A DNA stretch of 64,000 bases, taken from positions 15,739 through 79,738 of the forward strand of contig CAZEKF010000004.1 of assembly GCA_964512765.1 (NCBI GenBank). The letters are read 5' to 3'. Source of the DNA: an uncultured Methanosarcinales archaeon. GTDB lineage: Archaea > Nanobdellota > Nanobdellia > Woesearchaeales > GW2011-AR15. The notes under the pieces were generated by a model, which saw only the letters and a program-made list of their open reading frames with translations, was not told where the DNA came from and did not search any database. The position numbers were made by a program, and so were the translations under genes. Shown piece by piece: positions 2,412 to 39,223 of the stretch; position 1 is the stretch's first letter; each line of letters opens with the position of its first letter.

Positions 2412-3719
2412 TTAATAGTAGAACATGTCGTCTGTTAAACGATTGTTCATTTCACCAACTAAGTTTTTAGTTATTAATTCTTTAACTTTATTTTTTGGAT
2501 AGTTTGACAATAACCATGCTAATTTAATAAAAGTTGTCACAGGAGTCATATCATTCATATTACCTAGGACACCGATTGCTTGCGCATTTCTTTGGTCTTC
2601 GTACACATTCATGTTCAATCTGCCAAAAATTGTTTGAGGAGCGTTCACAACAATGCATCCACTGTCAATTATTTTTTTAATAGCTTTTTTTATGTTATCA
2701 GATTCTTTTGTCATATTGTCTATTTGACTAATTGGTAAACAAGCCAACCCTGTAGCTTCAATCACAAGACCATCATAATCTTTGTAAAAAAGAAACTGTT
2801 CAGCAAACATGTTAGTATGTTGTTTCATTATACCCACTTTAATTTTTTCATTAAACAATTTTAGGTTGAGTTTTTGGTTAGATTTTTTTCTATAATTTTT
2901 TCTAATTATTTTTATTTTATCTTTTGCATAATTAACACTCGCTATTGGTTTTGCATTAACAGGTTGGAACGCGTCTCTTCTGGAAGTATGAAACTTTCGC
3001 GATTTAAGACCTGGTAAAATCCAACAATTTTCATCATCAGTGTTTTCATGCATACAAATTCCAACTTCAGCGAAATTATTGTTTACAATAAAATAGACAG
3101 CATTTAACAGATTAAGATATGCGTCACTGCTTCCTCTATCAGAACTACGTTGTGCACCGACTATCAAGACAGGTTTTGGTAGATCTTCCAAGATAAAGGA
3201 TAATGCAGATGCAGTATAATGTAAAGTATCAGTACCATGTGTTATAATAATACCTTCTGAACCTGCTTTAATCTCTTTTTCGATTTCTTTAGCTAATAAA
3301 TTATAGTGGCTAAACCGCATATCTTGAGACCACATGTTTTTAACAAGCCTACTTCGAATATTAACAATTTTTCTTAGCTCAGGAAACATTGACAATATTT
3401 CTTCTGGAGTGAAGTTAGAACCAACACCGCCTGTTACGTAGTCAATTTTACTTGCAATCGTGCCGCCTGTATGTAATATAGAAAGAGTTGGTAAATTTTT
3501 CTTAACAGAAAGTTTCTTTTCTTTTCGATTGGTTTTTTTGTATTTCTTTATTAGATCAATTTTTTTAATTTTTTTCTTGTCAATACCTATATTGTAACCA
3601 TTTTTCAACTTTAAAACTAACATGCCTTGGCCTGTTAATTCTAATGATGGCATTAAAACTCCTTCATAAGAATCATTTTTAGTAATTACTTTGATTGTAT
3701 CTCCAGCATTATGAACCAT
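2412..3719 (-). CDS. gatD: Glu-tRNA(Gln) amidotransferase subunit D
   Basis: N-terminal LKLKNGYNIG domain, asparaginase motifs TGGTIAS and HGTDT, GAQRSSDRGSSD, HTSRRDAF. Confidence 0.95.
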   Translation of the reverse strand: MVHNAGDTIKVITKNDSYEGVLMPSLELTGQGMLVLKLKNGYNIGIDKKKIKKIDLIKKYKKTNRKEKKLSVKKNLPTLSILHTGGTIASKIDYVTGGVGSNFTPEEILSMFPELRKIVNIRSRLVKNMWSQDMRFSHYNLLAKEIEKEIKAGSEGIIITHGTDTLHYTASALSFILEDLPKPVLIVGAQRSSDRGSSDAYLNLLNAVYFIVNNNFAEVGICMHENTDDENCWILPGLKSRKFHTSRRDAFQPVNAKPIASVNYAKDKIKIIRKNYRKKSNQKLNLKLFNEKIKVGIMKQHTNMFAEQFLFYKDYDGLVIEATGLACLPISQIDNMTKESDNIKKAIKKIIDSGCIVVNAPQTIFGRLNMNVYEDQRNAQAIGVLGNMNDMTPVTTFIKLAWLLSNYPKNKVKELITKNLVGEMNNRLTDDMFYY

Positions 3720-3809
3720 ACCAAAAAATAAAGTTGTAGTGGTTTATTAAATTTATTGCTTTGATTTTCCAAAACCTATATAAACCATATTGCCTCTTTT
3801 TTGTAATTA

Positions 3810-4325
3810 ATGAAAAAGAGGTCGCAGATTTCTGTAGAGTTTGTTATGATAATTGCTATTGGTCTTATTATTATTTTGCCAGGAATTTATTTGTTTAGAA
3901 ATTATGTGTTTGAATCAAACGACGCATTATTAAAATCAAGAGTAACAGAAATTTCTACACAAATATTGTCGAAAGCCAGGGTAATGTATTATTACGGCCC
4001 ACCTTCTAAAACAACGTATGAAATAGAAATGCCACCACAAGTTAATAATATGTATCTTTTATCAGTTCCTGATAACAATGAATACTATCTTGTATTCAAT
4101 ATTTTAGCTTCTACAGGACCAGAAGATCTTTATTATGAATCAGAAATACCGTTGAAAGCACAGGAAAACATTACATGTAACATAGCATGTCAAGGGAACT
4201 GTGATTGTTTTCCAGCAAGATATTTTTCAAAAGGCGTTAAAAATTATAAAATTGAAGCAACACAAAATTGTAATTTGGAAGAATATTGTATTATCATTGG
4301 AGAAATATCTCCTGAACTAGTTTAA
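3810..4325 (+). CDS. Class III signal peptide pilin-like protein
   Basis: MKKRS/QISVEFVMIIAIG prepilin motif; C-terminal cysteines. Confidence 0.8.
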   Translation: MKKRSQISVEFVMIIAIGLIIILPGIYLFRNYVFESNDALLKSRVTEISTQILSKARVMYYYGPPSKTTYEIEMPPQVNNMYLLSVPDNNEYYLVFNILASTGPEDLYYESEIPLKAQENITCNIACQGNCDCFPARYFSKGVKNYKIEATQNCNLEEYCIIIGEISPELV

Positions 4326-7143: not shown

Positions 7144-7203
7144 AGACGAAAGGTTTATATAGGTTGAAACAGGTTTGAATTAAATAGTTAAGAGGGTATG
7201 TAA

Positions 7204-10200
7204 ATGAAAAAGATTGATTTTATTGTTCTAATATTAGTTGTTTCAATGTTTATAGTGATCGACCAGGATGTTGATGCAGGTATATGTTGTTGTAGTGCAT
7301 CAGAATGTGATGGGAGTGCTATTGACTATTATGATCCAGGAAGCAGTGTACCAGGGAATAAAATTTATGACGATGCAGGAACTGGAGCAAGATACTATTT
7401 TGAACCATCTGACGAAGAAGAGGATGGAGGTGGAGGCGGTGGTTATGTTTGTTCACCGAGTTGTTCAGGTAATGAATGTGGTGATAATGGTTGTGGTGGA
7501 AGTTGTGGAAGCTGCGATGGTTTAGCATTCACAACCGGTTGTGCAGGTAAAGTATGCGAGTTTCAGGATACTAGCTTAACTGTAGAAGTAGAACCAATAC
7601 CTTGTATTTCAGAATCAAAAAGAGAATTTACAGTTAGAGGTGTTAATAATTACTGTGGTGATCTCGAGATTCTTATTTATTATCCAGAAAGCACTGAATC
7701 TCATCCTATTAGTACAGACACATTTGGTTCATATAATTATGAACACACGTTTGTTATTCCAGACGATGTTGTATTGGCACCTGAGCCAACTATTAAAATT
7801 GAAGTTAAAGGAGACCGTATGTCTAGAAGAGATCCAAAAGATGAAGGTAATTATGATTGTGAAGAAACAATAGACTCATTAAATCTTAACTATAAGAACT
7901 TCTATTACTGTCCAGATTTTAGTGAAGGAGTAACATCTTCTGAATTTGATTATTATGACAAAGAAGAGTATTATAATTTTTATGACAATGATAAGACGTA
8001 TAATTGGGATGAGGACTGTGTAAGTGATGAATCTGTATCATTTTGTTCACCTAACCCAACAGATTGTGTTGATGAAAATGGAGATACGTTTAGTTTTAAA
8101 ACAGCACACGACGCGGATAGTGACGATGAAATTGAAGTATGTCATGCAATAGATAACATTCAAGGAGGTTGGCTTGACCCGGATGTTAATGCAGATGTTT
8201 GTAGTTATGTCTCTGGCGGTGATTGGTTTGATTGCGATCCTTTAATGGGAGGGTGCGATCCTGACAAAGATACGTTTGCACCTGAAGTTGCAGGTTTTTG
8301 TTGCGGTGACGAAAATGATGAAAAAGCTATTTCTACCAAAATTTTGAAAAATTGGGACAATGAGTATGTTAAGAATAACGACGGGTCAGTAAAAGAATAT
8401 ACTGCGTGTTGCGATCCACAAGATAGCTGTGTTGATGAGACAGGCATTTGCAGAGAAGAAAATTATGAATATTGTTTAGCAGTTGGTGGTGTGAAAGGAG
8501 TATGTACTAATACAGGGTCTGGTTATGATTGGGTATTGTACAATGAACCTACTTGTGTAAGCGGTTGTGAAAAATGTGACAATAATCAAGATGCAAAAGT
8601 TGATGACATTGACTTGACAAACATTGAACTTAACTATGAAAGTACAGGTGTATCTTACAACGCAGTTTATGATGTTAACGAAGATAATGTTGTTGATGAA
8701 GCAGACAGAGAATTTTGTCATGATAACTTTTTTGAACAAACCTGTGCATATTGCGGAGATAATTTACTTCAACCAACGTACGAAAGTTGTGACGTTGTAG
8801 ATAGTGTAATTGAATACGCTTGTCCTGAAGATTATTGTTCAGTAGAAAATAATGCGTATTATGAAAGACAAGATACTTGCGATGATTTAATTTGTGAGTG
8901 TTCTTATGAATTTAAAGGATGTGACAAAACTGAATGTCCAGGGACATGTGAAGTAGATGACGATTGTGATTCTGGTTATTTGTGTAATCTTGACACGTGT
9001 AGTTGTTTAATAATAGGTTGTCCTATGGGAACTTCATTGTGCGATGACGGTACATGTAAACCCGACTGTAACTTTGTTGGTTGTGATGGTAGCCCGGATG
9101 ACGTATGTTCACCTGGCGAAGGATGCGCATGTATAGACTGTCTAGGCCAGCAAAGTATTTGTAATGATGGAGGAGTATGCGGCCCAGACGGATTATGCGG
9201 TTGTCCTGAAGGTACTGCATTATGTAACGATGGTACTTGTAGCTCAGATTGTGTTATAACTGATGATGATTTTGCTGCTTGTTTACTTGATGATAATTTA
9301 GTAACTCCTTTTATTAAAAATCCAAGCTTTGAAACAGATGAAGCATGGAATTTCAGAGATTTTGAAAGAATAACGGAAAAATCTAAAACAGGATCTTATT
9401 CAGTAAAATCTGTAGATTACTTGGGAGCTGCAGAACAACAAGAAATAAACGTGCAACCTTTAACAAAATATCAATTAAGTGGTTACATATTTAACGAATT
9501 AGAAAAAGGTAACGCATACCTTGATTTAAAGGACATACCTGAAGAGTGTCAAGCTATATCAACAAAAAAAGACCAATGGGAATTAGTGTCTTGTGAATTT
9601 ACAACATCGTTAAATACAAATAGTGTAGTTATTAGATTGGTAACTGACCATACACAGGAAGAAGACCCAGTAGGTGTAGCATATTTTGATGATATTGAAT
9701 TATTACCTTTTGAAAGTGTTGTTGTTAAGGATTATTCAGGCGAAGGTAATGATGGAACATTGTATGGACCTACTCTTGTGGATGGTAAGTATGGTAAGGC
9801 TTATGAATTTGATGGGGTTAATGATTACATAATAACGCCAAACTCAGCAGTTCTAGAAGATATTTCAGAAGGTTCTTATACTTATGAAGCATGGTATTAT
9901 CCAAAAGAAATCCCTCCGGATATTCAATATAATAATTATCATTTTATCTTATGTAAACAAGGAGAACACAATCCTTTGCTATATCATAGAGAAACACATT
10001 TTAATTTTCATATGTGGAATGATAATCACCAATCTTTTGGAATTAATTCAGGTGCATCTAATCTGGTTAATAACTGGTATCATGTTGTAGGAACATTTGA
10101 TATTAATTCTAAGGAAGTAAATCTTTATGTAAATGGTATTCATCAAGGAACTGAAATCTTTACAGGAACACCAAAAGATCATGGACAAAATCCAATTAAG

Positions 10201-13200
10201 ATTGGTATGTGCAATGGCTTTGGTCAGAACTGGGCAGGCCCTGCAGAAGGTATTATCGACGAAGTAAAAATCTATAGCAGAGCTTTATCGCCTGGTGAAA
10301 TCACAAACAGTTACCAAGGAATTCCTGTTTCTGATGCTGGTTTAGAATTATACTATCCGTTTGAAGAACTTGAATACACGTTAGATTATTCCGGTAATGG
10401 AAATACAGGAGAAGTTAACGGTGCAACACTTATAGATGGTAAATATGGCAAAGGATACAATTTTAATGGAATTAATAATTATATTGAAGTATTCAATTCA
10501 TCCACTTTTGATTTAGGATCATTACAAGGACTTAGAACAGATGCAACATTTAGCATGTGGGTTAAAACAGATTGTAATGAATGCGGAATAATGTCCATCT
10601 TGGCTGGACACGAAGGAAATAGAGGTCATGATAGACACATTTTTACTAACAATGGAAAAATTGACGGTAGAATCTGGCACGGAGACAATGGTGGATTTGA
10701 GATTGGTGACAAGGATATTGGAGACGATTCCTGGCATTTAATTACTATGACAATTGAAGAAGAAATTGGAAGTAAATTTTTTATAGATGGTGTCGAAGAT
10801 ACTACAGTCACCAAAGACCAGTCAGATTTTAACTGGAGTGACAGATTATGGTTAGGTTTTTCAAACGACGCAGATAATAATTATTTCAATGGTATTATGG
10901 ACGAGTTCAGGGTTTATAACAGAGTATTAAATCAGCAAGAAATTTCTAACCTCTACCAAGGAAATTCTGTTTTAGATAATGGATTAGTTCTGTATTATCC
11001 GTTTGACGAATCTTTAGATAACAACACACAACCGAACAGCATTTGTGAATATGGTGAAGGTTGTGCATGCAGTGACTGTGAAGACCAACAAGACGGCTGT
11101 ATATTTGGTTTAGCATGTGATGATGGTTTATGCGCGTGCGTACCTACACAGGAATATGAAACAATAATTGACGACGGTATTGATAATGACTGTGACGGGT
11201 TGATAGACGAACCGTATTTTGACGATCCTGGAGTTTATATCTGGGAAGCTAACTGTGATTATTACATGTGCGTATACTCGCATGATTCAAACGAATATAC
11301 AACAACTGGTGTGTTGTCAGGGTCAGGTTTCTCGCAAATCAGAGAACATGACTGGGAAAATGACGATAGTTACACATACGATAATGTTAACAATCTTATA
11401 TCTTTCACATCTGAACTAAAAAATGATCTGGACTGTTTAATCTTTAAAACAGACAGCATGGTTACATATGATTTGAACTTAAGCAAAGATAATGTTTATT
11501 TAACACAAAGAAAGATTAATCCATTGGAAAATCCGTTTGATTTCTCTAGTCCTGAATGTAACAGTTACTGTGAATATCCAAACTTTTGCGGAACTACATT
11601 ATTATTAATAGGAAGGGTTGACTGTGACTATGAACAGTGTATATTTGACTGTGGCGGGTACTGGGTTGATGTTGAGTCAGGTTATGACTTTTTACCTGAA
11701 GGTGTTGCAAGAAACCCTGGTGATTATTGTTCAGTTTGTTCAAATGACATGGTTTGTTCAAATTATACAAACCTATACTCGTGCCATTTTGATCCTTGTG
11801 AAGCTTCACTAACATATTTCGGATGTAACTGGGACGAAGCATCAGATACCTGTGAAGACGCGTTTAGTCCATGTATGCCAGGAACTACATTATGCAAAGA
11901 CGGAAGTTGCAGTCAGGACTGTGAAGATACAGACACTGCAAACGCAGGTTGTATAGGATATCCCGATAATGTTTGCGAACTAGGCGAAGGATGTGCGTGC
12001 AGTGATTGTGACGACGACCAGGCAAGTTGTACAAACGGCGCTATTTGCGGTGATAATGAACGGTGCGGATGTCCAGAAGATACAACCTTGTGTAATGATA
12101 AAACATGCGATGAAACTTGTGAAGATAATGGCGGTAAAACAGGATGTATTGGTAGTCCAAATAATAAATGCGAGTTTGGCGAAGGTTGTGCGTGTGAAGA
12201 TTGTTTACTTTTACAAGACAGTTGTGTTGAAGGCATAGTTTGTGAAATCGGAGAAGAAGTTTGTAGTAAATTTGGCATTGAAGAAAAATGTCCAGCAGGA
12301 ACAACATTGTGCAACGACGGTACCTGTGACAATGATTGTAATAATAATGGTGGTAAACGGGAATGTTACGGTGACCCGGACGACATTTGTCAGTACGGTG
12401 AAGGATGTGCATGTGAAGATTGTGATGAAAAACGCGATAATTGTGTAGATAGGGTATATTGTAATTATGATACTAAACTGTGTGAAGGAGAAGATTACCC
12501 AGACGATGACGATGATGATGACGACGATGATGAAGAACAGTGTATAGATAAAGACAGTGATAATTATTATAAAATTGATAAAGATTGTATAGGTAGCAAT
12601 GATTGTAATGATAGAGATAGGTCTGTGAACCCTCGTGCCAACGAAATCTGTAATAATAATAAAGATGATAACTGTGATGGTTACATTGATGAAGATTGTG
12701 ATTCGTCTCTTAAGGTTAAACTCGGGTCAATACCTGAAGTACGTGTTTTAGATAAATTTGAACTTGAAATTACTGTTAATAATAATTTAAACAAAGAAAT
12801 TGAACAGGTTGAACTAAACGTGGACGTGCCAACAGGAATTAAACCAAATAAACAAACTCAAAAAATATATAGTATAGATTCAAAAGATTTTGAAAAAGTT
12901 ACATATGAACTGTTTGTAAAAGACTTCAAACAAGATAAGGCAGATATTACTTTAAACATTGAAATTCCTGAAGAAGTTGATATTTCAGAAGAGTTATCAG
13001 TGAACATTGACATTCCTAAATTCCTTGTAGCAGCTGACCCTGAAGATGTTGATGAAAAATGTGTTGATTTGTACTACGTTATTAATGATAACTCATTACA
13101 AAATGAAGTTGATCTTGAACTTAATGTAATAGATCCTAACGCATTGCTCAGTAAAACAGTTGTTCTTGATTATCTAAGATCCATAAAAACTAAAGGAATA

Positions 13201-13380
13201 GTTATTGAAGAACTGATTTCAAACCCGTATTGTTTAGAACAAGGTAATGACTACGAAATATTTGGTTATCTTTACCAGTCAACACCAGGGTTAATTGTTG
13301 ACACTGTTGCTCAAAGCAAAGAATATTTAAAGACTTCGAACAATGTTATTAAAATAACAGTTGATATTAATGATGTTTAA
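7204..13380 (+). CDS. Giant secreted Cys-rich adhesin-like protein (dockerin-like, CBM4/9-like, two LamG domains, MopE-like repeats, C-terminal Ig-like domain)
   Basis: 2058 aa; signal peptide; paired EF-hand-like loops DNNQDAKVDDID and DVNEDNVVDEAD; KNPSFE...YFDDIEL; two LamG units (FDGVNDY...GIIDEVKIYSRALS and FNGINNY...GIMDEFRVYNRVLN); DGIDNDCDGLIDE. Confidence 0.85.
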   Translation: MKKIDFIVLILVVSMFIVIDQDVDAGICCCSASECDGSAIDYYDPGSSVPGNKIYDDAGTGARYYFEPSDEEEDGGGGGGYVCSPSCSGNECGDNGCGGSCGSCDGLAFTTGCAGKVCEFQDTSLTVEVEPIPCISESKREFTVRGVNNYCGDLEILIYYPESTESHPISTDTFGSYNYEHTFVIPDDVVLAPEPTIKIEVKGDRMSRRDPKDEGNYDCEETIDSLNLNYKNFYYCPDFSEGVTSSEFDYYDKEEYYNFYDNDKTYNWDEDCVSDESVSFCSPNPTDCVDENGDTFSFKTAHDADSDDEIEVCHAIDNIQGGWLDPDVNADVCSYVSGGDWFDCDPLMGGCDPDKDTFAPEVAGFCCGDENDEKAISTKILKNWDNEYVKNNDGSVKEYTACCDPQDSCVDETGICREENYEYCLAVGGVKGVCTNTGSGYDWVLYNEPTCVSGCEKCDNNQDAKVDDIDLTNIELNYESTGVSYNAVYDVNEDNVVDEADREFCHDNFFEQTCAYCGDNLLQPTYESCDVVDSVIEYACPEDYCSVENNAYYERQDTCDDLICECSYEFKGCDKTECPGTCEVDDDCDSGYLCNLDTCSCLIIGCPMGTSLCDDGTCKPDCNFVGCDGSPDDVCSPGEGCACIDCLGQQSICNDGGVCGPDGLCGCPEGTALCNDGTCSSDCVITDDDFAACLLDDNLVTPFIKNPSFETDEAWNFRDFERITEKSKTGSYSVKSVDYLGAAEQQEINVQPLTKYQLSGYIFNELEKGNAYLDLKDIPEECQAISTKKDQWELVSCEFTTSLNTNSVVIRLVTDHTQEEDPVGVAYFDDIELLPFESVVVKDYSGEGNDGTLYGPTLVDGKYGKAYEFDGVNDYIITPNSAVLEDISEGSYTYEAWYYPKEIPPDIQYNNYHFILCKQGEHNPLLYHRETHFNFHMWNDNHQSFGINSGASNLVNNWYHVVGTFDINSKEVNLYVNGIHQGTEIFTGTPKDHGQNPIKIGMCNGFGQNWAGPAEGIIDEVKIYSRALSPGEITNSYQGIPVSDAGLELYYPFEELEYTLDYSGNGNTGEVNGATLIDGKYGKGYNFNGINNYIEVFNSSTFDLGSLQGLRTDATFSMWVKTDCNECGIMSILAGHEGNRGHDRHIFTNNGKIDGRIWHGDNGGFEIGDKDIGDDSWHLITMTIEEEIGSKFFIDGVEDTTVTKDQSDFNWSDRLWLGFSNDADNNYFNGIMDEFRVYNRVLNQQEISNLYQGNSVLDNGLVLYYPFDESLDNNTQPNSICEYGEGCACSDCEDQQDGCIFGLACDDGLCACVPTQEYETIIDDGIDNDCDGLIDEPYFDDPGVYIWEANCDYYMCVYSHDSNEYTTTGVLSGSGFSQIREHDWENDDSYTYDNVNNLISFTSELKNDLDCLIFKTDSMVTYDLNLSKDNVYLTQRKINPLENPFDFSSPECNSYCEYPNFCGTTLLLIGRVDCDYEQCIFDCGGYWVDVESGYDFLPEGVARNPGDYCSVCSNDMVCSNYTNLYSCHFDPCEASLTYFGCNWDEASDTCEDAFSPCMPGTTLCKDGSCSQDCEDTDTANAGCIGYPDNVCELGEGCACSDCDDDQASCTNGAICGDNERCGCPEDTTLCNDKTCDETCEDNGGKTGCIGSPNNKCEFGEGCACEDCLLLQDSCVEGIVCEIGEEVCSKFGIEEKCPAGTTLCNDGTCDNDCNNNGGKRECYGDPDDICQYGEGCACEDCDEKRDNCVDRVYCNYDTKLCEGEDYPDDDDDDDDDDEEQCIDKDSDNYYKIDKDCIGSNDCNDRDRSVNPRANEICNNNKDDNCDGYIDEDCDSSLKVKLGSIPEVRVLDKFELEITVNNNLNKEIEQVELNVDVPTGIKPNKQTQKIYSIDSKDFEKVTYELFVKDFKQDKADITLNIEIPEEVDISEELSVNIDIPKFLVAADPEDVDEKCVDLYYVINDNSLQNEVDLELNVIDPNALLSKTVVLDYLRSIKTKGIVIEELISNPYCLEQGNDYEIFGYLYQSTPGLIVDTVAQSKEYLKTSNNVIKITVDINDV
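9019..12483 (+). repeat. Five copies of a Cys-rich protein repeat (CPxGTxLCxDGxCxxDC...PxxxCExGEGCACxDC)
   Basis: Units begin CPMGTSLC, CPEGTALC, CMPGTTLC, CPEDTTLC, CPAGTTLC; each has GEGCAC. Confidence 0.85.
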
Positions 13381-16261: not shown

Positions 16262-16309
16262 TATCATCCAAGCAAAGTTTTAAATATAAAATTAATCTAC
16301 TGTTTTGTT

Positions 16310-16354
16310 ATGTATTCGTTATGGAAAACTTTAGCAGTAGTAGTGGTGCAATAG
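16310..16354 (+). CDS. Putative valS leader peptide MYSLWKTLAVVVVQ
   Basis: ATG about 25 nt after TTTAAATA box; GTA GTA GTG GTG run; hairpin and U-tract follow; valS directly downstream. Confidence 0.65.
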   Translation: MYSLWKTLAVVVVQ

Positions 16355-16420
16355 TTTCCATTGGCTTTTTTCTTCTAATATTTTATTAATTATTAGGAAA
16401 ATTATATAGAAGAGAAAGCA
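16321..16420 (+). promoter_or_regulatory. Putative attenuator in valS leader
   Basis: ATGGAAAACT pairs with AGTTTCCAT, then CTTTTTTCTTC; this U-tract can also pair with TAGAAGAGAAAGC near 16407-16419. Confidence 0.5.
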
Positions 16421-16457: not shown

Positions 16458-16505
16458 AAAAAATTAATAAATTTTTTAACCACCAAAAATCACAAGGTGA
16501 TTTTT
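16458..16505 (+). repeat. Double-hairpin element, copy 1 (covers valS RBS)
   Basis: AAAAAATT-aata-AATTTTTT, 7-nt spacer, AAAAATCAC-aag-GTGATTTTT. Confidence 0.55.
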
Positions 16506-16506
16506 G

Positions 16507-18933
16507 ATGGAATTACCAAAGAAATATGATCCGAAGATATCTGAAAAAAAATGGCAAAAGTATTGGGAAGATAAAGAAATTTACAAGTTTGACCCAAAAG
16601 ATACAGAACGTGAGTTATATGTAATAGACACTCCACCGCCTACTGTATCAGGTGCTATGCATATAGGTCACGCTTCAATGTATTCACAGATGGACATTAT
16701 TGCACGTTATCAAAGATTAAAAGGTAAGAATTTGTTTTATCCGTTCGGCACAGATGATAACGGGTTAGCAACTGAAAGATTAATAGAGAGAACTAAAAAA
16801 GTAAGATCTGTTAACATGAAGAGATCTGAGTTTATTAAACTGTGCTTGAAAACATTGGAAGAAATCAGGCCAGGCTTTGTTCAGGACTGGAAAAATGTTG
16901 GTATTAGTTGCGATTTTACATTGTTTTATTCAACTATTAATGACCATTGTAGAAAAATATCACAGAAATCATTCCTTAAACTGTATAAAAAAGGCAGAGA
17001 ATATAGAAAAGAGTCACCTTCTATATGGTGCCCTGAGTGCCAGACTGCAATTGCGCAAGTCGAGTTAGAAGATAAAGAACTAAAAAGTACATTTAATGAT
17101 ATCATCTTTAAAGTAGATGGTAATGATTTGGTAATTGCAACTACACGGCCAGAAATGTTAAGCAGTTGCGTAGCAGTTTTTGTACATCCAGATGATAAAC
17201 GTTACAAAAAATACATTGGTAAGAAAGCTAAAGTTCCGTTGTTTAACTACGAAGTACCGATTCTAATTGATAAACGAGCAGACCCTGAAAAAGGTACAGG
17301 AGTTGTAATGTGTTGTACGTTTGGTGACCAGACAGACATTGAATGGTATAAAGCGCATAATCTAGATCTAAGAATATCAATTACCAAAGATGGTAAAATG
17401 ACAAAATTAGCTGAAAAATACCATGGATTAAACATTGAAAATGCTCGAAAAGAAATTATTAATGATTTAAAGAAAAACAAATTATTGATTAAACAAGAGC
17501 CGATTAAACATACAGTTAATGTTCATGAACGATGTGGGACAGCTATTGAAATTCTTAACACAAAACAGTGGTTTATTAAGTATCTTGATCTGAAAGATCA
17601 GTTTTTGCAGAACGGTGCAGCCATGAACTGGTATCCTAAACATATGAAGTCTAGATTAGATAACTGGATCAATGGTTTACAATGGGACTGGTGCATTTCA
17701 AGGCAAAGACATTTCGGTGTACCGTTTCCTGTATGGTACTGTAAAAAATGCGATACTGAAATTCTTGCAAATGAAAAAGATCTTCCAGTAGACCCGCTAG
17801 AAGATAAACCACCAGTTAAGAAATGTCCTAAATGTAGTTGTAAAGATTTTGTACCTGAGAAAGATGTTTTTGACACATGGGCAACAAGTTCATTAACACC
17901 TGAACTAGCAGGTGAACTAATCAAAGGTAGTCCTAATTATAAAAACATTTATCCGATGGATTTAAGACCGCAAGCGCATGACATTATAACGTTTTGGTTG
18001 TTTAACACAATGGTTAAATCACAGTTGCATCACAAAAGAAACCCGTGGAAAAACATAACCGTTTCTGGCTGGGCTTTGGATCCACACGGTAAAAAAATGT
18101 CAAAGTCAAAAGGTAATGTTATACATCCACAAGAAATGATTGAAAAGTACAGCGCTGATGCGTTAAGGTTCTGGGCAGCTGGAAGCAAACTTGGAGATGA
18201 TCTGCCTTTCCAAGAAAAAGACCTTGTAACAGGTAAAAAAACCATTACAAAGTTATGGAACGCTAGCAAGTTTGTTTTAATGCATCTTGAAGATTATGAA
18301 TATGAAAAACATGATCTTGAAAATATTGACAAATGGATCTTGTCAAAGTTACAGAACTTAGTTAAAACATGCACAGAACATTTTGATAAATATGAATATT
18401 CAAAAGTTAAGTTGGATGTTGACACATTTTTTTGGCACGTGTTCTGTGACAACTATCTAGAACTAGTTAAAGATAGATTGTACAATCCAGAGAAACATCA
18501 CAAAGGTGCAAGAAATTCTGCACAGTTTACACTTTATGAAATATTGTTAACTATACTTAAGTTATTAGCACCGATATTACCACATATAACTGAAGAAATC
18601 TACCAGTTGTACTTTGCAAAAAAAGAAAACAAGAAAAGTATCCATATTTCTTTGTGGCCAGAGTTTAATATAACTTATGTTGATAAAGAAATTGAACAAA
18701 CGGGAGATTATGTGGTTAGTATAGTATCTGCGGTTAGAAAAGCTAAATCCGAGAAAGCTCTTTCATTAAACACTGAACTAAAAACATTAGTGATTGAGTG
18801 TTCATCTTCAATAAGAAAAAATCTCGAGTTGGTGTTACCTGATATCAGTGCAGTTACAAAAGCTAACAATATAGAATTTGGTAAGGGTAATATTGAACTA
18901 AGTAAAGAAATAAAGATTAAAGTTATTTTTTAA
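16507..18933 (+). CDS. valS: Valine--tRNA ligase (archaeal type)
   Basis: IDTPPPTVSGAMHIGH, ATTRPE, WCISRQR, KMSKS; AGGTGA RBS. Confidence 0.97.
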   Translation: MELPKKYDPKISEKKWQKYWEDKEIYKFDPKDTERELYVIDTPPPTVSGAMHIGHASMYSQMDIIARYQRLKGKNLFYPFGTDDNGLATERLIERTKKVRSVNMKRSEFIKLCLKTLEEIRPGFVQDWKNVGISCDFTLFYSTINDHCRKISQKSFLKLYKKGREYRKESPSIWCPECQTAIAQVELEDKELKSTFNDIIFKVDGNDLVIATTRPEMLSSCVAVFVHPDDKRYKKYIGKKAKVPLFNYEVPILIDKRADPEKGTGVVMCCTFGDQTDIEWYKAHNLDLRISITKDGKMTKLAEKYHGLNIENARKEIINDLKKNKLLIKQEPIKHTVNVHERCGTAIEILNTKQWFIKYLDLKDQFLQNGAAMNWYPKHMKSRLDNWINGLQWDWCISRQRHFGVPFPVWYCKKCDTEILANEKDLPVDPLEDKPPVKKCPKCSCKDFVPEKDVFDTWATSSLTPELAGELIKGSPNYKNIYPMDLRPQAHDIITFWLFNTMVKSQLHHKRNPWKNITVSGWALDPHGKKMSKSKGNVIHPQEMIEKYSADALRFWAAGSKLGDDLPFQEKDLVTGKKTITKLWNASKFVLMHLEDYEYEKHDLENIDKWILSKLQNLVKTCTEHFDKYEYSKVKLDVDTFFWHVFCDNYLELVKDRLYNPEKHHKGARNSAQFTLYEILLTILKLLAPILPHITEEIYQLYFAKKENKKSIHISLWPEFNITYVDKEIEQTGDYVVSIVSAVRKAKSEKALSLNTELKTLVIECSSSIRKNLELVLPDISAVTKANNIEFGKGNIELSKEIKIKVIF

Positions 18934-24413: not shown

Positions 24414-24463
24414 AAAAAATTGCTAGCAATTTTTTGTGTGCCAAAAATCATATGGTGATTTTT
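24414..24463 (+). repeat. Double-hairpin element, copy 2 (covers rps13 RBS)
   Basis: AAAAAATTGC-ta-GCAATTTTTT, 7-nt spacer, AAAAATCA-tatgg-TGATTTTT. Confidence 0.55.
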
Positions 24464-34703: not shown

Positions 34704-35129
34704 ATGGAAGTAAAAGAAGGTAGTAAAGTAAAATTTCATTACAAAGGAACTTTGAAATCTGGAGATGTTTTTGACAATTCTGAAGGCAGAGAACCGTTAG
34801 AGTTTGAAGTTGGTAAAGGCATGATCATTCCAGGATTGGAAAAAGAAATGATGGGACTAAAGAAGGGCGATAAAAAGTCAATAACAGTAGCAGCAAAAGA
34901 AGCGTACGGTGAACCTAATAAAGAATTAATAAAAGAAGTTCCAAAAGGTCCTGTTCCTGAAGGTATGAAATTAGAGAAAGGTGCAATGTTATACTTGAAA
35001 ACACCTGAAGGCCAACCGTTTCCTGCAAAAGTTGTTGAAGTTAAAGAAGAAACAGTTGTTTTAGATCTTAACCATCCTTTAGCAGGTCAAGACCTTACGT
35101 TTAATGTTGAGATTGTCGAAGTCAGTTAA
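34704..35129 (+). CDS. slyD: FKBP-type peptidyl-prolyl isomerase (SlyD-like, no His-rich tail)
   Basis: VFDNS, IIPGLE, EAYG, LDLNHPLAGQDLTFNVEI; GAGGTG RBS favours ATG 34704. Confidence 0.9.
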   Translation: MEVKEGSKVKFHYKGTLKSGDVFDNSEGREPLEFEVGKGMIIPGLEKEMMGLKKGDKKSITVAAKEAYGEPNKELIKEVPKGPVPEGMKLEKGAMLYLKTPEGQPFPAKVVEVKEETVVLDLNHPLAGQDLTFNVEIVEVS

Positions 35130-35161
35130 TTTTATATATTATTTATGATTTACTTTTTTGT

Positions 35162-35221
35162 ATGATTACTAAATGTAGTAACGATAATAATTTCTGTACA
35201 GATGATTGCGGTAGCAGTTAA
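35162..35221 (+). CDS. Putative leader peptide MITKCSNDNNFCTDDCGSS upstream of ppcA-aspS
   Basis: ATG about 25 nt after TTTATATA (35131); stop lies in GCAGT-taa-ACTGT hairpin followed by TTTCTTTTT. Confidence 0.5.
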   Translation: MITKCSNDNNFCTDDCGSS

Positions 35222-35267
35222 ACTGTCATTGAGTTTCTTTTTATATATAATTAATAGGTGAATTATA

Positions 35268-36728
35268 ATGAAAATCCCAAGAGCAATGTCAACACAACAT
35301 CCGGATAATGTAAAACAACCGTTTTTTGTAGAAAATTCTGTAATCGGCGGTGATGATGAGATTAAAGAAGCGTTTTACGCGTTCTCACATCTTAAAATAA
35401 AAGAACAGTTATGGGACTGTGAAGGTAAAGAAGTTGATAACTTTGTTGTTGAAAAATTATTAAGTAGGTATGAGCATTATTTCAGAGAAAATAAAATTGG
35501 TAAAGATATTTTTATTACTTTGAGAAGTCCAAACCCAAGGATTGAGAAAGGTAAAGGAAAGTTATTACTTGAAACATTAGAAAGCATACCAAGGAATTAT
35601 GACATTGCTAAACAGTTTTACGGTGAAGACATTGCACCTATATTTGAAATAACAATACCCATGGTGTCAAATGCTAACGAGATTCTTAGAGTTAAAGATT
35701 ATTATACTAAATACATTATTGAAAAACAAAACAAAATTGCAAATGATATCAAAGTTAAAGATTGGGTTGGCGAGTTTAAACCTGAACAGATTAAAGTTAT
35801 TCCTTTGATAGAAGACAAGGATAGTATGTTAAATGCTGATAAAATTGTAGAAGAATATCTGTCTAAAGCAAATGAAAAAGAGTATCAAAGAGTGTGGCTG
35901 GCCAGGAGTGATCCTGCTTTGAACTATGGTAATTTAGCAGCTGTTTTAGTTAATAGAATAGCGTTCCAAAGATTGCATAAATTACAGCAAAAGTTATCAA
36001 TTGAATTATTACCTATAATAGGCTGTGGTTCTGTGCCGTTCAGGGGTAACTTTCGTCCTGATAACATGCAGAATATACTAAAAGCATACCCAAGTGTTCA
36101 GACGTTTACATTACAATCTGCGTTTAAATACGATTTTCCTGAAGAAGATGTTAGAAAAGCAGTTGAGTTATTGGATAACACACCAAGAAAAGATCCAAGA
36201 AAAATTAATGAAACAAAAGCACTTGAAATTATAGAAAAAACATCTAAAGAATATCAGAAACAAATTATACAAATAGCTCCATTGATAAACCAGATAGCTA
36301 ATTATGTTCCTCAAAGACGAAAAAGAAAAATGCATATTGGTTTGTTTGGCTATTCAAGAGATGGTTCCGGTGTTAAACTGCCACGTGCAATTAAATTTTG
36401 TGCGTCATTATATTCACTAGGTATACCACCAGAATTGTTTGGACTAAACGCACTAGATGAAAAAGAGTGGGAATTTATTTTTGAAAATACAGGTGTTGAA
36501 AAAGATATTAAAGATGCATTGTTATTTTTGAACAAAGATAATCTATCAATACTACCTAAAGACATTCAGAAAGAATTAATGTCTGTCATTAACAATTTTA
36601 ATGTTGAACCAGATCTTAAACACAAAAAGATTACATCAATCATATTCAATGACTATAAAAAAAATAATCTAATTGCGTTGTCAGAAAATATTGAACGAGC
36701 AGCTAGTATTAGGAATTTTTTAGGATAA
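35268..36728 (+). CDS. ppcA: Archaeal-type phosphoenolpyruvate carboxylase
   Basis: IPRAMSTQHPDN, WDCEGKEVD, LARSDPALNYG, PFRG, GLFGYSR, LPRAI. Confidence 0.95.
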   Translation: MKIPRAMSTQHPDNVKQPFFVENSVIGGDDEIKEAFYAFSHLKIKEQLWDCEGKEVDNFVVEKLLSRYEHYFRENKIGKDIFITLRSPNPRIEKGKGKLLLETLESIPRNYDIAKQFYGEDIAPIFEITIPMVSNANEILRVKDYYTKYIIEKQNKIANDIKVKDWVGEFKPEQIKVIPLIEDKDSMLNADKIVEEYLSKANEKEYQRVWLARSDPALNYGNLAAVLVNRIAFQRLHKLQQKLSIELLPIIGCGSVPFRGNFRPDNMQNILKAYPSVQTFTLQSAFKYDFPEEDVRKAVELLDNTPRKDPRKINETKALEIIEKTSKEYQKQIIQIAPLINQIANYVPQRRKRKMHIGLFGYSRDGSGVKLPRAIKFCASLYSLGIPPELFGLNALDEKEWEFIFENTGVEKDIKDALLFLNKDNLSILPKDIQKELMSVINNFNVEPDLKHKKITSIIFNDYKKNNLIALSENIERAASIRNFLG

Positions 36729-36773: not shown

Positions 36774-39008
36774 ATGCTAAGAACACATAATTGTGGAGAG
36801 TTAAGAAAAAAACATATTAAGAAAAAAGTTACATTATGCGGGTGGACAAATTCGTATCGCGACCATGGGGGCGTAATATTTATAGATCTGCGTGATCGTT
36901 GGGGTAAGACACAAATAGTTTTTGATCCAAGCCACAACAAAAAATCACATAAAGTGGCAGATTCTTTAAGAAGAGAATGGGTTATCCAGATAGAAGGCAA
37001 AGTCAGAAGCCGTGGTGAACTTGTTAATAAAAAACTAAACACTGGTGAGATTGAAGTTTTAGCAGATTCTATTAAGGTTCTTAGCAAGAGTGAAACACCG
37101 CCTATTGAAGTGGATGATAACAAAATAGCAGGTGAAGAACCTAGGTTAAAGTATCGTTATTTAGATTTAAGAAGACCAGTTATGCAGAAAAATCTATTGA
37201 ATAGACATAAAGCAATGAAATCTGCTATGAATTATTTGGATAGTCAAGATTTTGTGCATTTAGAGACTCCAGTATTAATGAAATCAACTCCTGAAGGTGC
37301 AAGAGATTATGTTGTTCCTTCTCGTGTAAACATGGGCAAATTTTATGCATTGCCACAATCACCGCAGTTGTACAAACAAATTCTAATGGTAAGCGGTTTT
37401 GACAGGTATTTCCAGTTTGCTAGGTGTTTACGAGACGAAGATTTGAGATCAGACAGGCAACCTGAACATACACAGATAGATTTAGAAATGAGTTTTGTTG
37501 AAAGAGAAGATGTTTTTGAAGTTGTTGAAGGATTAATGAAATCTATGTGGAAAGATGTTCTTAAAATAAATGTAAAAATACCTTTCCCTAAATTATCTTG
37601 GCAAGAAGCAATGGAAAAATATGGTAGTGACAAACCAGACTTAAGGTTTGGCCTAGAATTTATTGATGTTACAAACCTGATGAAAAAATCTAGTTTTAAT
37701 GTATACAAAGAAGTTATTAAAAATAACGGAGTTGTAAAATGCTTAAAAGTTCCTAAAGCCAGTAAACTCTCAAGAAAAGAAATTGATGAATTTATTGAGT
37801 TGGCAAAGACACACCATGCAAAAGGATTATCATGGATGAAGATTGTTAATGGTAAAGCAGAAAGTTCAATAACCAAATATTTTAATAATAAATTATTAGC
37901 TGAATTAGTTAAGAAAACCAAAGCTAAAACTGATGATTTATTGTTATTTGTTGCTGATAAGTTTGAAGTTGCTTGCAATGCTCTTGGTCAGGTTAGATTA
38001 GCAGTAGGTGAGAAGCTTAATTTAATTAAAGATGACTGGAAATTTGCCTGGATAATTGATTTTCCATTGTTTGAATGGAATGAAGATGAACAGAAATGGG
38101 ACACTATGCACCATATGTTTTGTTCTCCTAAAAAAGAAGATATTCCTAAACTTGAAAAAGATCCAGGTTCTGTACTATGCAATCAGTATGATTTAACTCT
38201 TAATGGTGTAGAATTATGTTCAGGAAGTATTAGAATAACGGATCCTAAATTACAGGAAAAAGTTATGAAAATTGTTGGTTTTTCAAAAAAAGAAGCTTAC
38301 AAACGATTTGGATTTTTATTGGATGCATTCAAATACGGCGTACCTCCACACGGCGGTGTTGGTCTAGGCTTTGACAGGATAGTTGCTTTAATGAACGGTT
38401 ATAATGATATTCGAGAAGTTATTGCATTTCCAAAAAATAAACAAGCGCAATGTCCAATGGACGGTTCTCCAGGTGATATTGACGACAGGCAAATGAAAGA
38501 ATTGCATATTAAACTTGATTTTGTTAAGAAAAAAGATACAGAGGACAAATCTGTGTTTAAGGATATTAAGAAATTGCTTGAGAAAAACAAGGTTAAATAC
38601 GAAGAAATGCATCACAAAGCAGTTTTTACAAGTGAAGAAGCTGCTAAAATCAGAGGAACTAAATTAAGGCAAGGTGCAAAAGCATTGATATTTAAAGCTG
38701 ATGATAAACCAGTCATGGCAGTGGTTTCTGCTGCTAAACAAGTTGATACAAACAAGTTTAGAAAATTATTGAAAGTTAAAAAACTAAGATTAACAACAGC
38801 TGATGAAGTTAAAGATTTAACAGGGTTAAAAATTGGATCCATACCTCCTTTCGGCAATTTGTTTGGTATGGATACGTATGTTGATGAATCTTTAACAAAG
38901 ATACAAGTCATAGCTTTTAATGCAGGATCTCATACAGATTCATTAAAAATGAAATTCGGTGATTGGAGAAAAGTAGTTGAACCAAAAGTAGGTGAGTTTG
39001 GAAAATGA
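36774..39008 (+). CDS. aspS: Bacterial-type aspartate--tRNA ligase (likely non-discriminating) with C-terminal YbaK/ProX-like domain
   Basis: RTHNCGEL, RDHGG, STPEGARDY, LPQSPQLYKQ, GAD insert, PPHGG; extra C-terminal ~155 aa with AKALIFK and GSIPPFG. Confidence 0.95.
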   Translation: MLRTHNCGELRKKHIKKKVTLCGWTNSYRDHGGVIFIDLRDRWGKTQIVFDPSHNKKSHKVADSLRREWVIQIEGKVRSRGELVNKKLNTGEIEVLADSIKVLSKSETPPIEVDDNKIAGEEPRLKYRYLDLRRPVMQKNLLNRHKAMKSAMNYLDSQDFVHLETPVLMKSTPEGARDYVVPSRVNMGKFYALPQSPQLYKQILMVSGFDRYFQFARCLRDEDLRSDRQPEHTQIDLEMSFVEREDVFEVVEGLMKSMWKDVLKINVKIPFPKLSWQEAMEKYGSDKPDLRFGLEFIDVTNLMKKSSFNVYKEVIKNNGVVKCLKVPKASKLSRKEIDEFIELAKTHHAKGLSWMKIVNGKAESSITKYFNNKLLAELVKKTKAKTDDLLLFVADKFEVACNALGQVRLAVGEKLNLIKDDWKFAWIIDFPLFEWNEDEQKWDTMHHMFCSPKKEDIPKLEKDPGSVLCNQYDLTLNGVELCSGSIRITDPKLQEKVMKIVGFSKKEAYKRFGFLLDAFKYGVPPHGGVGLGFDRIVALMNGYNDIREVIAFPKNKQAQCPMDGSPGDIDDRQMKELHIKLDFVKKKDTEDKSVFKDIKKLLEKNKVKYEEMHHKAVFTSEEAAKIRGTKLRQGAKALIFKADDKPVMAVVSAAKQVDTNKFRKLLKVKKLRLTTADEVKDLTGLKIGSIPPFGNLFGMDTYVDESLTKIQVIAFNAGSHTDSLKMKFGDWRKVVEPKVGEFGK

Positions 39009-39223
39009 AAACAAGATTTGTACCAAATATATTTGGAGTTGTTTTAGTTACAGCATTTTTTATTTTTGTTAGTGCATTACTTTATGCATTACCATTATGG
39101 TTAATATGGAATTTCACTATTCCTAGACTGTTTAATGGTCCTGTATTATCTTTATTAGATGCGTTCTTGCTTAACTTGTTAGCAGGAATATTGTTTAAGA
39201 GTAAGGATAATAGTAAGAATTAG
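39005..39223 (+). CDS. Small membrane protein
   Basis: 72 aa, two hydrophobic helices, LWLIWN...P.LF; ATGA overlap with aspS. Confidence 0.7.
   Translation: MKTRFVPNIFGVVLVTAFFIFVSALLYALPLWLIWNFTIPRLFNGPVLSLLDAFLLNLLAGILFKSKDNSKN

Follow-up and report, generated by a model that had tools for sequence, protein, structure and literature searches.

The small ORF, its promoter and its codons

The subject of this report is a small open reading frame (ORF) in a 64,000-nucleotide (nt) stretch of contig CAZEKF010000004.1 (hereafter the window; GC 30-36%), situated between a gene for an FKBP-type isomerase (PF00254) and ppcA, and its possible role as an amino-acid-sensing leader of ppcA and the following aspS. 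The ppcA gene (35268..36728) encodes an archaeal-type phosphoenolpyruvate (PEP) carboxylase of 486 aa, which matches PF14010 over its full length (607.8 bits against a cut-off of 25, E=1.7e-182) as well as TIGR02751 (593.6 bits, cut-off 146). It is followed, after a gap of 45 nt without a T5 run, by aspS (36774..39008), whose product is a bacterial-type aspartyl-tRNA synthetase (AspRS) of 744 aa with a GAD domain and a C-terminal YbaK-like tRNA_edit domain (NF001750, 841.5 bits; TIGR00459; PF04073). The best relatives of PpcA are labelled Woesearchaeota or Nanoarchaeota, and the host therefore appears to be a Woesearchaeota-like DPANN archaeon. No rRNA, tRNA or Rfam match was detected in the 64-kb window (Rfam at gathering thresholds). 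The small ORF, ppcA, aspS and the signals described around them all lie on the plus strand.

The small ORF (35162..35221) consists of 19 codons and a stop and encodes MITKCSNDNNFCTDDCGSS. A TATA box, TTTATATA (35131..35138), stands directly after the FKBP stop, matches TTTWWATA at 8/8 positions and starts 31 nt before the ATG of the ORF, and transcription is predicted to begin at or next to this ATG, giving a leaderless message. Across the window, 19 leaderless genes have the TATA 8-mer starting at -32.1 +/- 2.3 and carry no Shine-Dalgarno (SD) motif. First genes of transcription units (e.g., those starting at 495, 3810, 20729, 31974, 47468, 53932, and 61532) mostly lack an SD and have a TATA start 28-38 nt before the ATG, while SD-like GGTG or GAGG motifs occur mainly on internal or long-leader genes; leaderless mRNAs thus seem to be the rule here. 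Given the 8/8 TATA box at -31, and one at -28 before a homologous ORF in a related ppcA locus (L004, also 8/8), both placed as in leaderless genes, the small ORF looks like a leaderless first cistron. A T6 run (35154..35159) in TTTACTTTTTT, downstream of the TATA box and ahead of the predicted start site, falls in columns that are invariant in the window, L004, and a second relative, L002, and may also serve as the FKBP terminator. The TATA box, the ATG at 35162, the stop inside gcagt-taa-actgt (35214-35226), the downstream U-run, the SD-like motif and the ppcA ATG were each found where an earlier, sequence-only reading of the window had placed them.

That reading had interpreted the ORF as an aspartate-family leader peptide, counting 11 of its 19 residues as M, I, T, K, N or D. 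The count is correct. When tested by binomial statistics against the window's own proteome (19,993 residues), the enrichment of the six-member family is not significant (10/18 without the initiator Met, 36.5% expected, p=0.08), and the family count is weak because I, K, and N are common anyway in an AT-rich genome. Asn plus Asp accounts for 6/18 residues against 11.9% expected (p=0.015) and Cys for 3/18 against 1.9% (p=0.004), and the L004 copy contains eight Asn or Asp residues out of 18 (p=0.0006) and again three Cys. The composition signal is Asn/Asp plus Cys, not the six-member aspartate family. The Asn/Asp residues are concentrated in an AspRS-dependent codon cluster, S-N-D-N-N (35177..35191), with four consecutive Asn/Asp codons at 35180-35191; the same site in L004 reads N-N-D-G-N, and four of the five codons 6-10 specify N or D in both copies (NDNN; NNDGN). 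When the ORF was set against intergenic ORFs, as the sequence-only reading had recommended, it was the sole one of 33 in the window (10-40 codons, starting with ATG) to reach 6/18 for N+D, the sole one to reach three Cys and the sole one to reach 10/18 family residues.

The identity of the downstream genes gives these codons a potential meaning. In many DPANN loci, ppcA adjoins genes of Asp/Asn metabolism: it lies beside an aspartate aminotransferase gene in L006, L007, L009, L027, L065, and L068; L027 and L068 add genes for aspartate kinase and semialdehyde dehydrogenase, GatA and GatB flank it in L012, and an Asn-synthase-like gene follows it in L072. This recurrent adjacency points to a dedicated role of ppcA in leading oxaloacetate to Asp/Asn. 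The order ppcA...aspS is kept in L002, L004, and L005, and in the window the genes for GatC, GatA, and GatB lie 2-6 kb downstream. The earlier suggestion that the PEP carboxylase is tied to Asp/Asn supply is supported by gene context, and, with aspS and GatCAB nearby, ppcA plausibly provides these cells with oxaloacetate for aspartate. In Archaea, GatCAB converts Asp-tRNA-Asn to Asn-tRNA-Asn. If this AspRS is non-discriminating and GatCAB acts as usual, Asn and Asp codons would both report on the downstream AspRS. Another Woesearchaeote (L050) possesses an AsnRS.

Two signals close to the ppcA start point to different transcripts. A second TATA-like box (35238..35249), with TTTTTATA at -30 and TTTATATA at -28 from the ppcA ATG, again matches at 8/8 positions and overlaps a U-run, U3CU5 (tttcttttt, 35234..35242), which begins 13 nt after the small-ORF stop and is a candidate archaeal terminator. 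An SD-like AGGTGA (35256..35261) lies 6 nt before the ppcA ATG, with AGGTG kept in L002-L005. Of 33 genes inspected, none but ppcA combines an 8/8 TATA near -30 with an SD-like motif; the SD speaks for a leadered message from 35131, the second TATA for a separate leaderless ppcA transcript. In the relatives, the ppcA start (L002:3992, L004:3992, L005:3992) is most likely the GTG within the conserved AGGTG, giving M-x-K-x-K/N-I-P-R; in the window this GTG is out of frame and the ATG 9 nt downstream, at 35268, is used, so that one motif provides the start codon in some genomes and the SD in others.

The caution in the sequence-only reading that the second TATA could drive ppcA directly holds, since the box is as well placed as those of real leaderless promoters. 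It opens a rival explanation that we consider rather unlikely, in which the ORF is an independent gene for a 19-residue Cys/Asp/Asn-rich peptide acting in trans, for example a metal-binding partner of the adjacent SlyD-like FKBP, with its own promoter (35131) and with the U-run as its terminator, while ppcA is transcribed leaderless from the TATA at 35238-35247. The position of the U-run directly before the second TATA fits such an arrangement, as does the location of both copies of the ORF just after an FKBP gene. The SD-like motif before ppcA would be left unexplained, leaderless genes here being without SD. The 8 nt upstream of the second TATA also contain only 3 purines, including one A, against a mean of 5.3, which makes this region purine-poor relative to the 19 training promoters; two real promoters are equally poor.

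Conservation in related loci

An alignment of 25 PpcA proteins was used to scan genome contigs, and this yielded 80 ppcA loci, of which 79 can be read upstream of the gene; the nearest relatives of PpcA (83% and ~72% identity) fall outside this DNA-level comparison. The FKBP...ppcA...aspS neighbourhood is common to the window and three of these loci: L002, L004, and L005. In L004 (GC 0.29), which shares 66% identity with the window in PpcA, 80% in AspRS, and 69% in FKBP, a homologous 19-codon ORF, MITKCNNDGNCSVIDCDNN, occupies the same place after FKBP (L004:3884), with one Cys displaced by one position through two adjacent changes (F11C/C12S). L002 has the same promoter right after FKBP (TTTATATATTATTT...TTTACTTTTTT, in invariant columns), running straight into ppcA and without the ~95-nt block from the ATG to just before AGGTG; in L005, a divergent gene abuts ppcA and the small ORF is absent. 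No further Asn/Asp-rich upstream ORF preceded ppcA in any of the readable loci, and a search with a peptide pattern and a 16-nt DNA pattern found no paralogue of the ORF in the window or the fetched loci beyond the L004 copy. The comparison of ppcA upstream regions that the sequence-only reading had called for was thus divided in outcome, with a homologue in L004 and none in the other 78 readable loci, the syntenic L002 and L005 included. Since no other readable ppcA locus carries it, the element appears to be restricted to one lineage and is not a general ppcA feature.

Between the window and L004, the small ORF shows 74% nucleotide identity without a single indel, and the spacer from its stop to ppcA is not alignable. 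The distribution of the changes differs from that in the flanking genes. Identity at codon positions 1, 2, and 3 is 0.76, 0.90, and 0.52 for FKBP, 0.73, 0.86, and 0.51 for PpcA, and 0.80, 0.92, and 0.59 for AspRS, against 0.84, 0.53, and 0.84 for the small ORF. The ORF is hence far better kept than near-neutral sites, with third positions at 84% compared with 51-59% in the three flanking genes. It is not kept in the manner of a folded protein, the constant part of the peptide being limited to MITKC and several N, D, and C positions. This pattern speaks against an independently functioning peptide, for which one would not expect second codon positions to be the least kept (53%) and third ones the best kept (84%), opposite to the flanking genes; amino-acid identity is 53% and the Cys spacing is not kept. 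On the other side, both copies have three Cys, and the F11C/C12S swap preserves this count.

We simulated drift with 15 random, composition-weighted substitutions in 100,000 trials. Start, stop, and open frame survived in 10% of trials, and the frame together with N+D of at least 6 and at least three Cys survived in 0.13%. These values bear on the explanation that the ORF is a functionless frame that arose by chance in an AT-rich spacer and was inherited by two related genomes. A 19-codon frame is fairly often open at 31% GC (about 8% stop codons, as estimated from base composition), only two copies exist, L002 lacks the ORF, and the one-in-ten survival of the frame is not rare. Such an origin would nevertheless have to accommodate 74% identity over the whole ORF without indels next to flanking third positions at 51-59%, a spacer that becomes unalignable just past the ORF, a perfect TATA geometry and a composition that is kept or even strengthened in L004, and we regard it as improbable.

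Conservation at the nucleotide rather than the protein level is also what would be expected if the segment were a 5' leader that senses nothing. Its constraint would then come from promoter-proximal or initiator signals, from an RNA or protein-binding site, or from a generic upstream ORF (uORF) for basal ppcA translation, and the Asn/Asp/Cys content would follow from an RRY-type nucleotide pattern of the AT-rich DNA. Conservation is best in the first 16 nt and the preceding T-rich stretch, many of the differences are second-position G/A changes (AGY to AAY) that match the lower GC of L004, and a predicted hairpin, described below, shows one double and one single compensatory change. Against this stand the exact leaderless position of the ATG in both genomes, the 0.13% of simulations in which ORF and composition persist by chance, and the first rank of the ORF among the 33 intergenic ORFs for N+D and for Cys. 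There is also no Rfam family match over 35050-35350, even at E up to 1, and the RNA folds no better than shuffled sequence. We consider this explanation unlikely and rank it after that of an independent gene. A frame, a length and codon classes that are kept while the peptide drifts form the pattern expected of a sensory leader ORF, which, seen in two sequences, is no more than suggestive.

Parallel mini-ORFs, termination signals and a proposed mechanism

The small ORF had been described as a second attenuation leader with the layout of one before valS, and the valS leader does have this layout. A 14-codon ORF, MYSLWKTLAVVVVQ (16310-16354), with four consecutive Val codons, starts 31 nt after an 8/8 TATA box (16279-16286), and a U6 run begins 11 nt past its stop, at about 16366. 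Within this leader (16279-16371), the arms of a hairpin lie in codons 4-6 and just after the stop, and the fold of the 210-nt leader has z=-3.4. The SD-led valS (16504-18933; valyl-tRNA synthetase, NF009687, 1106 bits) starts ~130 nt beyond the U6 run. Judged by these features, the valS leader is the cleanest candidate leader peptide of the window. A 19-nt palindrome containing an SD, AAAATCAYAWGGTGATTTT, occurs in exactly two copies, just before valS (16486-16504) and just before the ribosomal protein S13-S4 operon (24444-24462), against 0.53 matches expected when up to 3 mismatches are allowed; it may act as a hairpin that hides the SD or as an operator common to translation genes.

When the window and low-GC loci (380 kb) were scanned for intergenic ORFs of 6-40 codons that start with ATG and follow a TATA-like box placed at -36 to -27, there were 62 candidates, nine of which contain an amino-acid run. 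One of them, MIRQDYYRCDCCCCEFSLV (CDCCCC) in the Woesearchaeota-like genome of L011, has an 8/8 TATA at -31 and lies 1.2 kb upstream of cysE. The order there is TATA and mini-ORF (7157-7247), a LAGLIDADG-type ORF (7327-8091), cysE (8370-9005), encoding a serine O-acetyltransferase (TIGR01172, 211.1 bits, cut-off 210.65), and cysS (8996-9455), encoding the cysteinyl-tRNA synthetase (CysRS). This cysS appears to be interrupted after ...YTCGP by a frame-shifting insert of ~73 nt (L011:9089-9161) with a 13-bp inverted repeat inside it, and CysRS resumes with AVYDFAHIGNFR in another frame; the insert could be a small intervening element, a miniature inverted-repeat transposable element or an assembly error. 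Among aminoacyl-tRNA synthetase (aaRS) units with a readable upstream region, a cognate-codon leaderless mini-ORF was present for valS and cysS, present for aspS in two of four genomes (the window and L004) and absent for asnS, where none was seen before the AsnRS gene of L050. A Phe-rich mini-ORF in L072 (TATA at -31) was rejected as a cognate case, as it precedes an unrelated Yip1 membrane protein. The Val4/valS and Cys4/cysE-cysS parallels would be left unexplained if the small ORF were an independent gene. A wider scan (684 kb, 1,481 small ORFs) supplied a counter-example in L045, where two tandem Lys-rich mini-genes on the minus strand (3845-3932 and 3678-3746) repeat a promoter and start, CCGTTTATAAT...GTGGTAAAAATGGCAAC, with a T-run after each, the first of them ending in CCCC. 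These were rejected as support, since they look like independent small basic protein genes, and they illustrate that tiny independent genes with a promoter and a T-run are known in DPANN genomes, which favors reading the small ORF as one more of this kind.

Archaeal terminators are described (PMC8716108) as U-tracts of at least four U to which aCPSF1/FttA binds and for which a hairpin is not strictly required. The U-runs of the window and L004 fit this U4-or-longer description. In L004, a U6 starts 7 nt after the stop, so that a U5 or U6 run lies 7-16 nt past the stop in both copies. A hairpin is predicted (35198..35226) that precedes the U-run, at a distance of 8 nt in the window and of 1-3 nt in L004, with its 5' arm in codons 13-16, its loop in codon 17 and its 3' arm in codons 18-19, the stop, and the next 5 nt. 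A small stem (35214-35226) shares the 3' arm segment, which can alternatively pair just past the stop. The minimum-energy folds of the window and L004 leaders both contain the homologous hairpin, with one double change (C-G to U-A) and one single change (U.G to U-A) as read off the two folds. The warning that the GCAGT/ACTGT stem is weak was justified, this 5-bp stem being marginal. In the window fold, AGGTGA sits in the loop of an AU-only stem, unpaired with the ORF region, and sequestration of the SD as in mycobacteria was rejected for the window on this ground; in L004, UCUCCU just after the U-run may pair with AAGGUG, a pairing that is not conserved. We treat the predicted structure as a lead, not as evidence, because no leader folds better than shuffled sequence.

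Taken together, these observations lead us to favor, tentatively and with slightly less than even confidence, the reading that the small ORF (35162-35221) is a leaderless sensory uORF acting in cis on ppcA and the co-directional aspS. The transcript would start at the small-ORF ATG, driven by the TATA box at 35131, and ribosomes on the ORF would meet the Asn/Asp cluster and the three Cys codons, with Asn and Asp depending on AspRS if this enzyme is non-discriminating. Were charged tRNA scarce, a ribosome would pause on the 60-nt ORF. As the nascent RNA would be only ~80 nt long when polymerase reaches the U-run, the paused ribosome would cover most of it and occupy or melt the hairpin at 35198-35226, thereby blocking it. 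Fewer polymerases would then terminate at the U-run (35234-35242), be it intrinsically or with the help of aCPSF1/FttA, and more would continue into ppcA-aspS. With good charging, the ribosome would finish and leave, and the U-run would end a larger share of transcripts now that the leader RNA is bare. Termination at a single U5-U6 tract should be incomplete, which would suit regulation. The opposite polarity is an alternative, in which coupled ribosomes would suppress termination when charging is good. We infer the translation of the ORF, its co-transcription with ppcA, the direction of control, the sensed amino acid and the role of a termination factor.

Several observations weigh against a sensory uORF. 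The first concerns promoters: ppcA has its own 8/8 TATA at -30 and aspS a 7/8 TATA at -31, and the small ORF with its U-run could therefore be a separate unit. The codons are also less telling than in the parallel cases, as the Asn/Asp codons are clustered without forming a pure run, a weaker signal than the Val4 and Cys4 runs, and nothing obvious connects the three Cys codons (p=0.004) with ppcA-aspS. The copies number only two, in the window and L004, and the ORF is missing from L002, L005, and every other readable ppcA locus. The folds are no better than those of shuffled sequences, with an equally or more stable fraction of 0.22 for the window (z=-0.21) and 0.07 for L004 (z=-1.34); for the valS and L011 leaders, 0.15 and 0.67 of the shuffles are at least as stable. 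The fold predicted for the window leaves the ppcA SD unsequestered. Of the 62 candidate mini-ORFs scanned, 13 have a run of T5 or longer within 20 nt past the stop. Of the parallels, the L011 Cys ORF is separated from cysE by the LAGLIDADG ORF, a hairpin with a T-run and a TATA-like box at -26, and the CCCC-ending, Lys-rich mini-ORF of L045 does not lie beside Cys genes. The proposal of a second attenuation leader accordingly stood with respect to leaderless placement, conservation in L004, Asn/Asp codons, the U-run and the valS parallel; it gained no support from folding, and ppcA's own TATA box counts against it. On balance, a sensory uORF is supported by several independent hints and is possible, yet unproven.

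We hold it to be possible, though more doubtful than the cis-acting role of this one ORF, that Woesearchaeales use leaderless cognate-codon mini-ORFs more generally (Val4 for valS, Asn/Asp for ppcA-aspS, and Cys4 for cysE-cysS), with ribosome occupancy setting the passage of polymerase through the U-tract, which would amount to attenuation in Archaea. Under this extension, the mechanism would possibly be shielding from aCPSF1/FttA instead of alternative hairpins.

Other features of the neighbourhood are as follows. Beyond aspS, the gene order that begins with FKBP, the small ORF and ppcA continues with a 72-aa ORF and then CorA, a HAD hydrolase, GatC, a cyclophilin, GatA, a patatin-like protein, and GatB. 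The 72-aa ORF (39005..39223, plus strand) overlaps the aspS stop, has no family match and is kept after aspS in L004 and L005 at ~70% identity. As an ORF of 71-72 aa over the aspS stop in three genomes (window 39005-39223, L004:8515-8730, L005:7681-7926), it is probably a co-translated small protein. The fusion of AspRS to the YbaK-like domain is found in the window (36774-39008) and L005 (5463-7703) and not in L004 or L002, where AspRS has 598 and 588 aa. Elsewhere in the window (7204-13380), a 2058-aa ORF with two Laminin_G_3 (concanavalin-like) stretches is probably a giant surface protein, a kind common in DPANN genomes.

Relation to known leader-peptide systems

Amino-acid-sensing leader peptides are a textbook bacterial device. 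Full-text literature searches, with subscription-only literature outside their reach, found no report of leader-peptide attenuation in an archaeon, and the words attenuation, leader peptide, and polarity are absent from a 2021 review of archaeal transcription-translation coupling. If the favored reading is true, translation-transcription coupling would be used for gene control in Archaea, and the locus would offer a natural substrate for studying the interplay between the ribosome and termination at U-tracts by aCPSF1. It would also reveal how DPANN cells, whose genomes are reduced and provide few transcription factors, adjust their charging enzymes together with precursor supply, and it flags a class of unannotated ORFs of 14-19 codons that gene callers miss.

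The nearest described system, judged by analogy, is that of the mycobacterial leaderless polycysteine small-ORF (sORF) attenuators. In mycobacteria, leaderless short ORFs act as amino-acid sensors, as reported for the polycysteine 'Cys ribulon' by Canestrari et al. (bioRxiv 10.1101/834739), and experiments show there that a stalled ribosome opens an RNA duplex which hides the downstream ribosome-binding site. Common to both are a short ORF at the 5' end of a leaderless transcript (predicted here from promoter geometry), its position, likewise predicted here, as first cistron ahead of genes for the matching amino-acid pathway, its cognate codons and a host that uses leaderless translation widely; L011 even has a Cys4 before cysE-cysS. 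The mycobacterial system differs in being bacterial and in relying on a duplex that hides the ribosome-binding site, none being predicted in the window, whereas the element considered here is archaeal and has a mixed Asn/Asp (possibly also Cys) cluster and a U-run after the ORF.

A second comparison is with pheM-pheST, trpL, and hisL of E. coli, the classical leader-peptide transcription attenuators before aaRS or biosynthetic operons. The likeness lies in a short upstream ORF with cognate codons, a hairpin over the end of the ORF and a U-run after it, and in the segment of codons 18-19, which here can pair either upstream or downstream. The E. coli attenuators form stable, mutually exclusive, GC-containing hairpins with a hairpin-dependent terminator, in contrast to the short AU-rich stems at the level of shuffled sequence seen here, and their leader ORFs are SD-led whereas this one is predicted to be leaderless. 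Archaeal termination has no strict need of a hairpin (PMC8716108), which is a further difference.

The third and mechanistically closest parallel would be ribosome shielding. It is the type of mechanism favored for the small ORF, in which a ribosome would shield the nascent RNA and its U-tract from a termination factor. In the tna leader of E. coli, a ribosome held on the leader ORF blocks the access of Rho to the nascent RNA. The corresponding factor here would be aCPSF1/FttA, which binds U-tracts (PMC8716108). The two differ in how the ribosome is held: in tnaC, a ligand-bound nascent peptide stalls it at the stop codon, whereas a shortage of charged tRNA would stall it at sense codons here, and the parallel is drawn by inference. 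We know of no tnaC-type example in Archaea, and none came up in the literature searches. By this analogy, the mechanism proposed for the ppcA-aspS leader resembles the ribosome shielding of tna more closely than the hairpin switch of the trp type.

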